This document shows, in pieces, positions 14,241 through 14,260 of a stretch of 64,000 nt of DNA (positions within the stretch are counted from its first letter, which is position 1; each line of letters starts with the position of its first letter). Location: the sequence record PQ287649.1, one strand, 5' to 3'. The notes under the pieces were generated by a model. That model had not been told where the DNA came from, ran no database searches, and was given only the letters and a program-made list of their open reading frames with translations. The DNA is from Pseudomonas phage HHBS47_1. The translations under genes and the position numbers were made by a program.

Positions 14241-14260
14241 TATTTTAAACCTACATTATC
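14241..14260 (+). promoter_or_regulatory. promoter-like motif A copy (tattttaaacctacattatc)
   Basis: Near-identical copies at 27251-27270 and 56416-56436. Related copies at 8494-8512 and 63659-63671. Confidence 0.5.

Follow-up and report, generated by a model that had tools for sequence, protein, structure and literature searches.

The window, that is the whole stretch of 64,000 nucleotides of Pseudomonas phage HHBS47_1 DNA (PQ287649.1) analysed here, carries six copies of a short intergenic element, called motif A, on the + strand. The copy at 14242-14260 (ATTTTAAACCTACATTATC; exact match, 31.8 bits) heads an operon of gp079, gp080 and gp081 and has a predicted transcription start at G14266. 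The second gene of this operon, gp080 (15486-17198, + strand), is a homologue of phiKZ gp123, a β-like subunit of the non-virion RNA polymerase (nvRNAP; PDB 7ogp_E, E=2e-6). The copy at 27252-27270 (ATTTTAAACCTAGATTATT, 29.4 bits) is found upstream of gp098 (27299-27835) with a predicted start at G27276. A third copy at 56417-56435 (ATTTTAAACCTACATTATT, 32.0 bits) adjoins the gp118 stop codon and stands at the head of the block that extends from gp119 to the DNA ligase and RNase H genes; its predicted start is G56441. All three are annotated as putative promoters in Pseudomonas phage EL. The initial annotation had reported three near-identical copies at 14241-14260, 27251-27270 and 56416-56436, which are real and differ from the elements given here only in their borders.

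The other three sites are weaker. The element at 19587-19605 (TTTTCAGATCTAAATAATC, 20.3 bits) lies between gp081 and gp082, with a predicted start at G19611, and was missing from the initial annotation. The site at 8497-8515 (AAATCAAACCTATATTACC, 11.5 bits) precedes an open reading frame at 8557-9264, has its predicted start at G8521 and includes an exact copy of the phiKZ octamer TATATTAC at positions 8508-8515. The site at 63655-63673 (GAAACAAACCTACATAATC, 9.3 bits) is located between gp126 and gp127, with a predicted start at G63679. The latter two had been described as a degenerate copy at 8494-8512 and a fused copy (AAACCTACATAAT) at 63659-63671. Both turned out to be true members of the set, and their positions had to be corrected to 8497-8514 and 63660-63672. 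As had been proposed, every site lies upstream of a + strand gene: all six are intergenic and have the same orientation as the next gene.

The 17-mer TTTTAAACCTACATTAT has two perfect occurrences, 14243-14259 and 56418-56434; a third, at 27253-27269, carries a single mismatch. An independent search for repeats recovered the three strong copies as a 22-nt family. It also detected a 26-nt pair with 88% identity (19591-19616 and 63659-63684), which links the 19587 and 63655 sites (families D3 and D15, respectively).

Motif A corresponds to the annotated putative promoters of phage EL

The window and the genome of phage EL share 97-98% nucleotide identity (97.3-97.7% over nearly the full length of the window). 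The window thus derives from an EL-like (Elvirus), phiKZ-related jumbo phage. The GenBank record of EL (AJ697969 / NC_007623) lists 210 features, 201 coding sequences and 9 promoters, in a genome that is 92.4% coding, with 170 coding sequences on the + and 31 on the - strand. Each of the nine promoters is a 19-nt 'regulatory / putative phage promoter' feature. Three of them (EL 90601-90619, 103608-103626 and 132472-132490) are the counterparts of the 14242, 27252 and 56417 copies; they are the same elements at the same places, upstream of gp079, gp098 and gp119. Furthermore, a table in PMC7058600 gives an EL promoter consensus, WTTTYAAACCTACATTATY, credited to Hertveldt et al. 2005 (J Mol Biol 354:536), next to the predicted promoters of OBP, N1M2, 201phi2-1 and phiKZ (TATATTAC). 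Motif A is therefore a rediscovery of an element that was already published and annotated as the putative phage promoter of EL.

Some minor additions result from our analysis. The 8497, 19587 and 63655 sites have no promoter annotation in the EL record, and further unannotated EL sites were found with their CTA anchors at 17578, 41006, 149106, 164550, 165839 and 206530. The additions comprise these three window sites, at least nine extra sites in EL and an invariant G at the probable transcription start. The 63655 site is one place at which the two phages differ. The window contains AAACCTACATAAT at 63660-63672, while EL (139699-139711) has the variant AAACCTACATTAC, so that ACATAAT in the window stands against ACATTAC in EL. 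These substitutions stay within the allowed motif, and both versions occur at other sites.

The gene downstream of the 8497 site also differs between the two records. In the window, 8557-9264 is an ATG-initiated open reading frame of 235 amino acids that begins 36 nt after G8521. Only the last 142 codons of the matching frame are annotated in EL (ORF074, EL 85194-85622), at a distance of 321 nt from the motif. Probably, the start of ORF074 was mis-called or EL carries a disruption.

Motif A is non-random and confined to intergenic regions

To score the sites, a weight matrix was built from the nine annotated EL promoters and compared with 30 random sequences. The three strong copies reached 29-32 bits, whereas the maxima of the random sequences ranged from 9 to 19 bits with a best score of 19.3 bits. 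By sequence alone, the 8497 and 63655 sites fall inside this chance range. They were accepted as members because they are intergenic, lie on the + strand 3' of a G+C-rich hairpin and possess a G at position +15 (see below).

Allowing up to three mismatches, TTTTAAACCTACATTAT matched the window five times, compared with a mean of 0.12 in shuffled sequences of preserved dinucleotide composition; none of 100 such shuffles gave five or more matches. In the entire EL genome, the pattern A[AG]A[CT]CTAnAT[ACT]A[TC] was found 13 times, always on the + strand and always between genes. The shorter core CTAnAT[AT]A[TC][CT] gave 20 matches, all on the + strand and 19 of them intergenic. In the window, this core was matched seven times (2.5 expected), namely at the six + strand intergenic sites and once within a gene. 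Occurrence inside coding regions at a similar frequency, which would argue against the promoter proposed in the initial annotation, was not observed, as coding sequences are essentially free of the motif. The depletion of the core from coding sequence is only marginal, with one match compared with 4.3 expected (10 of 200 simulations gave as few or fewer).

An unbiased count of 8-mers in the intergenic segments of EL returned the motif A words ACCTACAT, CTACATTA and CTATATTA among the top recurrent ones. The other classes at the top of this count were T-rich tails and the hairpin stem GGTAGGGG/CCCCTACC. A scan of IMG/VR for the exact 14-mer TAAACCTACATTAT was uninformative: of the more than 120 contigs it yielded, almost all had one match, as expected by chance for a database of that size. 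Short-query blastn yielded weak matches only; some were scattered in smaller phages, and the others mapped to intergenic, unannotated parts of jumbo phage genomes larger than 220 kb.

Three matches inside genes were taken as chance occurrences: two with three mismatches, at 15792-15808 (+ strand, in gp080) and 18284-18300 (- strand, in gp081), and a core match at 51198-51207 (- strand, in gp116).

Anatomy of the motif and its flanks

When 18 EL sites were aligned at the C of their CTA, the organization wTTTyAAAC-CTAyATTAY-N5-G became apparent. Positions C0, T1, A2, A4, T5 and A7 are invariant in these sites, as they are fixed by the pattern used for selection. Three other conserved features were not used to select the sites. 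A T-tract occupies positions -9 to -6 from the C of CTA, with T in 12 to 16 of the 18 sites. The AAAC at -4 to -1 is conserved as well. Finally, a G is present 15 nt after the C of CTA (+15) in 18 of 18 sites, mostly preceded by T. All six window sites share this G, and the predicted starts given above are these residues. No conservation was apparent in the -30 region of the EL sites.

The +15 G, which is positioned 7 nt after ATTAT, is probably the transcription start site, judged from its invariance and spacing. If it is taken as +1, CTAyATTAY spans -15 to -7 and the T-tract -24 to -21, matching the description of phiKZ-type promoters. The distance from the end of the motif to the next start codon is 23-105 nt. 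The sole apparent exception to this spacing is EL ORF074, where the window has the longer open reading frame described above. The 5'UTRs implied by a start at the G would be 16-71 nt long, compared with 31-40 nt typical in phiKZ (PMC8244752).

CATTAT and TATTAC resemble a -10 hexamer at four of six positions, including A2 and T6, which would suit a sigma-70 or alternative sigma promoter read by the P. aeruginosa RNA polymerase. A scan of window positions 8000-27999 with the sigma-70 consensus detected no + strand site at 14242 or 27252, and neither has a -35 element at a spacing of 16-18 nt. One weak match (9 of 12 positions, 19577-19604) overlaps the 19587 site. Sigma-70-like sites in this region were at or below chance, 16 compared with a shuffle mean of 19.8. 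In the scanned region, the earlier statement that motif A lacks a sigma-70-like -35/-10 pair thus holds. Moreover, the conserved C0 and T1, the T-tract at -24 to -21 and the G at +15 are unlike sigma-70 promoters, and the element is common to phages of Erwinia, Klebsiella, Vibrio, Aeromonas and Edwardsiella, which together with Pseudomonas makes six host genera. Infection by phiKZ-type phages is also reported to be independent of the host RNA polymerase (PMC13282480, PMC7598289). Recognition of motif A by a host sigma factor is hence extremely unlikely.

Conservation at orthologous junctions in related phages

In Erwinia phage RisingSun, the proteins flanking the sites share 26-62% identity with those of the window. 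The first 150 kb of this phage contain 12 + strand matches to the core, 11 of them between genes and one within the final 30 nt of a gene. A T-rich upstream flank and a G at +15, mostly in the context TG or GTG, accompany all 12. According to tblastn, four of the six window sites (14242, 19587, 56417 and 63655) are situated at junctions orthologous to RisingSun motif sites; the sites after RisingSun gp86, gp103 and gp120 correspond to the 19587, 56417 and 63655 sites, respectively. The RisingSun orthologue of gp079 is just 28% identical, and still the capsid junction of this phage displays a hairpin followed by TTTTTAAACCTACATTATT.

The same arrangement of hairpin and motif at the capsid junction was observed in Klebsiella phage Miami, Pseudomonas phage OBP, Vibrio phage VP4B, Aeromonas phage ZPAH34 and Edwardsiella phage pEt-SU, whose sites align with motif A. 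An alignment of the region between the capsid gene and gp079 from seven phages (six genera) displayed a conserved block TTTyAA...A.ATTAT...G(+15) at a mean column identity of 45%. Within this block, the columns TT.A...A.ATTAT are invariant. The junction between the capsid gene and the nvRNAP operon of phiKZ was inspected separately and contains TTTAAGATCTATATTACagtaatG with a G at +15, 37 nt before the ATG of gp121. With phiKZ (TTTAAGATCTATATTAC) included, the element at this junction is conserved in eight genera.

Hairpins upstream of the motif

The initial annotation had placed several copies directly after terminator hairpins. This applies to five of the six sites, and the upstream regions fold with -29 to -44 kcal/mol; the 56417 site is without a strong upstream hairpin. 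A G+C-rich, terminator-like hairpin with the stem CCCTACCC.../...GGGTAGGG is located at 14175-14213 (+ strand), about 28 nt upstream of the 14242 site. RNAfold calculated -44 kcal/mol for the region 14161-14241. Comparable terminator-like hairpins on the + strand precede the 27252 site (27200-27234, -39 kcal/mol), the 19587 site (19520-19551), the 63655 site (63593-63622, -30 kcal/mol) and the 8497 site (8435-8474, -34 kcal/mol).

These hairpins are similar in sequence. The stem CCCTACC(C).../...GGGTAGGG is common to those at 8435-8474, 14175-14213, 19520-19551, 27200-27234 and 63593-63622 and to a further hairpin at 9633-9668. In EL, GGTAGGGG is present in 10 intergenic segments, and clear variants of the stem exist at the orthologous capsid junctions of RisingSun, Miami, OBP and pEt-SU. 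Conserved terminator motifs are known in phiKZ and 201phi2-1 (PMC10914365, PMC11512511). It is conceivable, though we regard it as doubtful, that hairpin and motif A constitute one conserved terminator-promoter cassette, that its stem is read in a sequence-specific manner by phage polymerases and is not a generic intrinsic terminator for them, and that EL has about twice as many early promoters as annotated (at least 18), each with its start at an invariant G. If true, this would be a modest extension only, since the terminator motifs of phiKZ and 201phi2-1 have already been reported.

The tight coupling of motif A to hairpins with a common stem sequence also raises the question whether it is a promoter at all. 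It would occur in read-through RNA, and might be an RNA leader or processing signal, a binding site of a regulator or nucleoid protein, or the border of a mobile intergenic cassette. The orientation of the motif speaks against such functions, as it is not palindromic and is one-stranded (all 20 matches in EL are on the + strand), always pointing towards the following gene. Its distances to the start codons are typical of promoters, and in phiKZ and 201phi2-1 primary 5' ends have been mapped about 10 nt downstream of homologous motifs (PMC8244752, PMC11512511). The syntenic genes around orthologous sites argue against mobility. We therefore consider a function other than that of a promoter very unlikely.

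Motif A as a putative early promoter

The genes downstream of the sites encode the nvRNAP subunit homologue, runs of small unknown proteins, DNA ligase, RNase H and RNA ligase. Apart from its similarity to phiKZ gp123, gp080 matches phrog_2943 ('polymerase') and has homologues in 174 phage records, one of which (Erwinia phage RAY) is annotated as 'nvRNAP beta subunit'. EL contains homologues of five RNA polymerase β/β' genes of RisingSun, gp080 among them.

Motif A is thus non-random, exclusively intergenic and co-oriented with the next gene, its flanks as well as its position and sequence are conserved across genera, and the phage encodes RNA polymerase genes. [quoted passage not shown] Based on sequence and on the analogy to phiKZ, motif A very probably represents the early promoter of phiKZ-like phages (Chimalliviridae) in its Elvirus version, recognized by the injected virion RNA polymerase.

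The early promoters described for phiKZ number 28-32 and combine an extended -10 box with a T-rich element located upstream of -19; they are attributed to the virion RNA polymerase and typically give 5'UTRs of 31-40 nt (PMC8244752, PMC10914365). Mapping of start sites links the TATATTAC motif to early genes of this phage (PMC8244752, PMC10914365, PMC7598289). According to a review, a motif of this kind can be found ahead of the presumed early operons of every jumbo phage that encodes RNA polymerases, with its centre at about -10 in the profiled phages (PMC7598289). The mapped start sites of 201phi2-1 have the same kind of motif, which was assigned to the early class by analogy (PMC11512511). 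A literature search for start-site or time-course data on EL or its close relatives found none, so that promoter function, start site and early class of motif A are deduced by homology.

The likeness to the phiKZ early promoters extends to several features. Both have an extended -10-like block (TATATTAC in phiKZ, CTAyATTAY in the EL type) together with a T-rich element some 20 nt ahead of the start, and both are found at the heads of + strand operons. Moreover, phiKZ has a candidate site at the orthologous junction between the capsid gene and the nvRNAP subunit genes with identical spacing to the +15 G. The EL sites differ in their preference for AAACCTACATTAT, with C instead of T at the third position and T instead of C at the last position of the phiKZ octamer. 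The phiKZ promoters were mapped experimentally, whereas those of EL are putative. In OBP, N1M2 and 201phi2-1, the early promoters that have been predicted (TTTYARRYAKATATTATYWWADTG and similar) share their architecture with EL: TTTyAr is followed by a spacer and ATATTAT(Y), and (G)TG comes about 5 nt later (PMC7058600, PMC11512511). Their downstream GTG corresponds to the invariant G of EL. The spacer is CAGA or GTCT in these phages compared with CCTA in the EL type; the 201phi2-1 starts are mapped. Promoters of the T7 type are likewise phage-specific single blocks of about 20 nt by the start site that are rare in coding sequence. They are an analogy only, as there is no likeness in sequence and T7-type promoters are served by a single-subunit RNA polymerase, in contrast to the multisubunit β/β'-type enzyme proposed here.

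A phage-specific motif without sigma-70 features would also fit a promoter of the nvRNAP, which would place motif A in the middle or late class. DNA ligase, RNase H and RNA ligase downstream of the sites could be middle genes, and several nvRNAP genes of 201phi2-1 are under the control of middle or late promoters (PMC11512511). However, the phiKZ motifs of these classes look different: middle promoters have a weak element, AT-rich or TACT, around -22 to -24, and late ones show just TATG at the start (PMC7598289, PMC8244752). Motif A fits the early consensus TATATTAC and has the T-rich element at the right spacing. Furthermore, no copy was found ahead of any of the structural blocks of the window (gp066-071, the capsid gene and gp103-118), which argues against the middle and late classes. 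A middle or late promoter of the nvRNAP is therefore improbable. The phiKZ late promoter was also considered as a direct counterpart, and was rejected because it consists of TATG over the start with no upstream conservation, whereas motif A is strongly conserved upstream and has no fixed TATG.

For the preferred early promoter, we infer from the phiKZ model that the polymerase reading motif A is the virion RNA polymerase. This multisubunit enzyme, for which no sigma-like factor is known, would enter the cell with the injected DNA and recognize CTAyATTAY (about -15 to -7) together with the T-tract (about -24 to -21). Initiation would occur at or beside the invariant +15 G, leading to transcription of + strand operons with small early genes, nucleic-acid enzymes and one nvRNAP subunit. 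The strong upstream hairpins would end the preceding transcription unit, and each site would restart transcription. A link between nvRNAP genes and early promoters is not universal, as some nvRNAP genes of 201phi2-1 have no early promoter nearby (PMC11512511).

These results demonstrate that a reading of the sequence alone can recover a genuine regulatory signal. They refine the list of EL promoters from three to six sites in the window and from nine to at least 18 in EL. The refined list might be of use for the annotation of EL-like therapeutic phages and as a source of host-independent promoter parts.

Further features of the window and the EL record

A search of the window against Rfam detected no RNA family at the motif sites and only a tRNA elsewhere. 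This tRNA-Thr (anticodon CGT) is encoded at 26590-26665 on the + strand between gp095 and gp096; it scored 69 bits in Rfam and ARAGORN concurs. The GenBank and RefSeq records of EL give no tRNA feature.

The sole stretch of the window without a clean alignment to EL is located between gp099 and gp100 at about 28773-29610 (EL 105128-105668). About 450 nt of it have no match in EL, another piece is just 93% identical, and the window exceeds EL by about 300 nt at this place.

A 300-nt gap without an open reading frame and without motif A separates gp071 from gp072 (7362-7668). In this gap, pyrimidine tracts (tctttct...) precede purine tracts (gaaaggga...); it might represent a non-coding RNA or else a remnant. 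The matching junction of RisingSun, after gp78, has a motif A site.

In EL, the homologue of the RisingSun RNA polymerase β' gene gp29 is split into two parts (EL 28226-29665 and 31080-31268) around ORF025, which according to the EL record contains an intron-encoded HNH endonuclease. This arrangement suggests that an RNA polymerase subunit gene of EL is interrupted by an intron.
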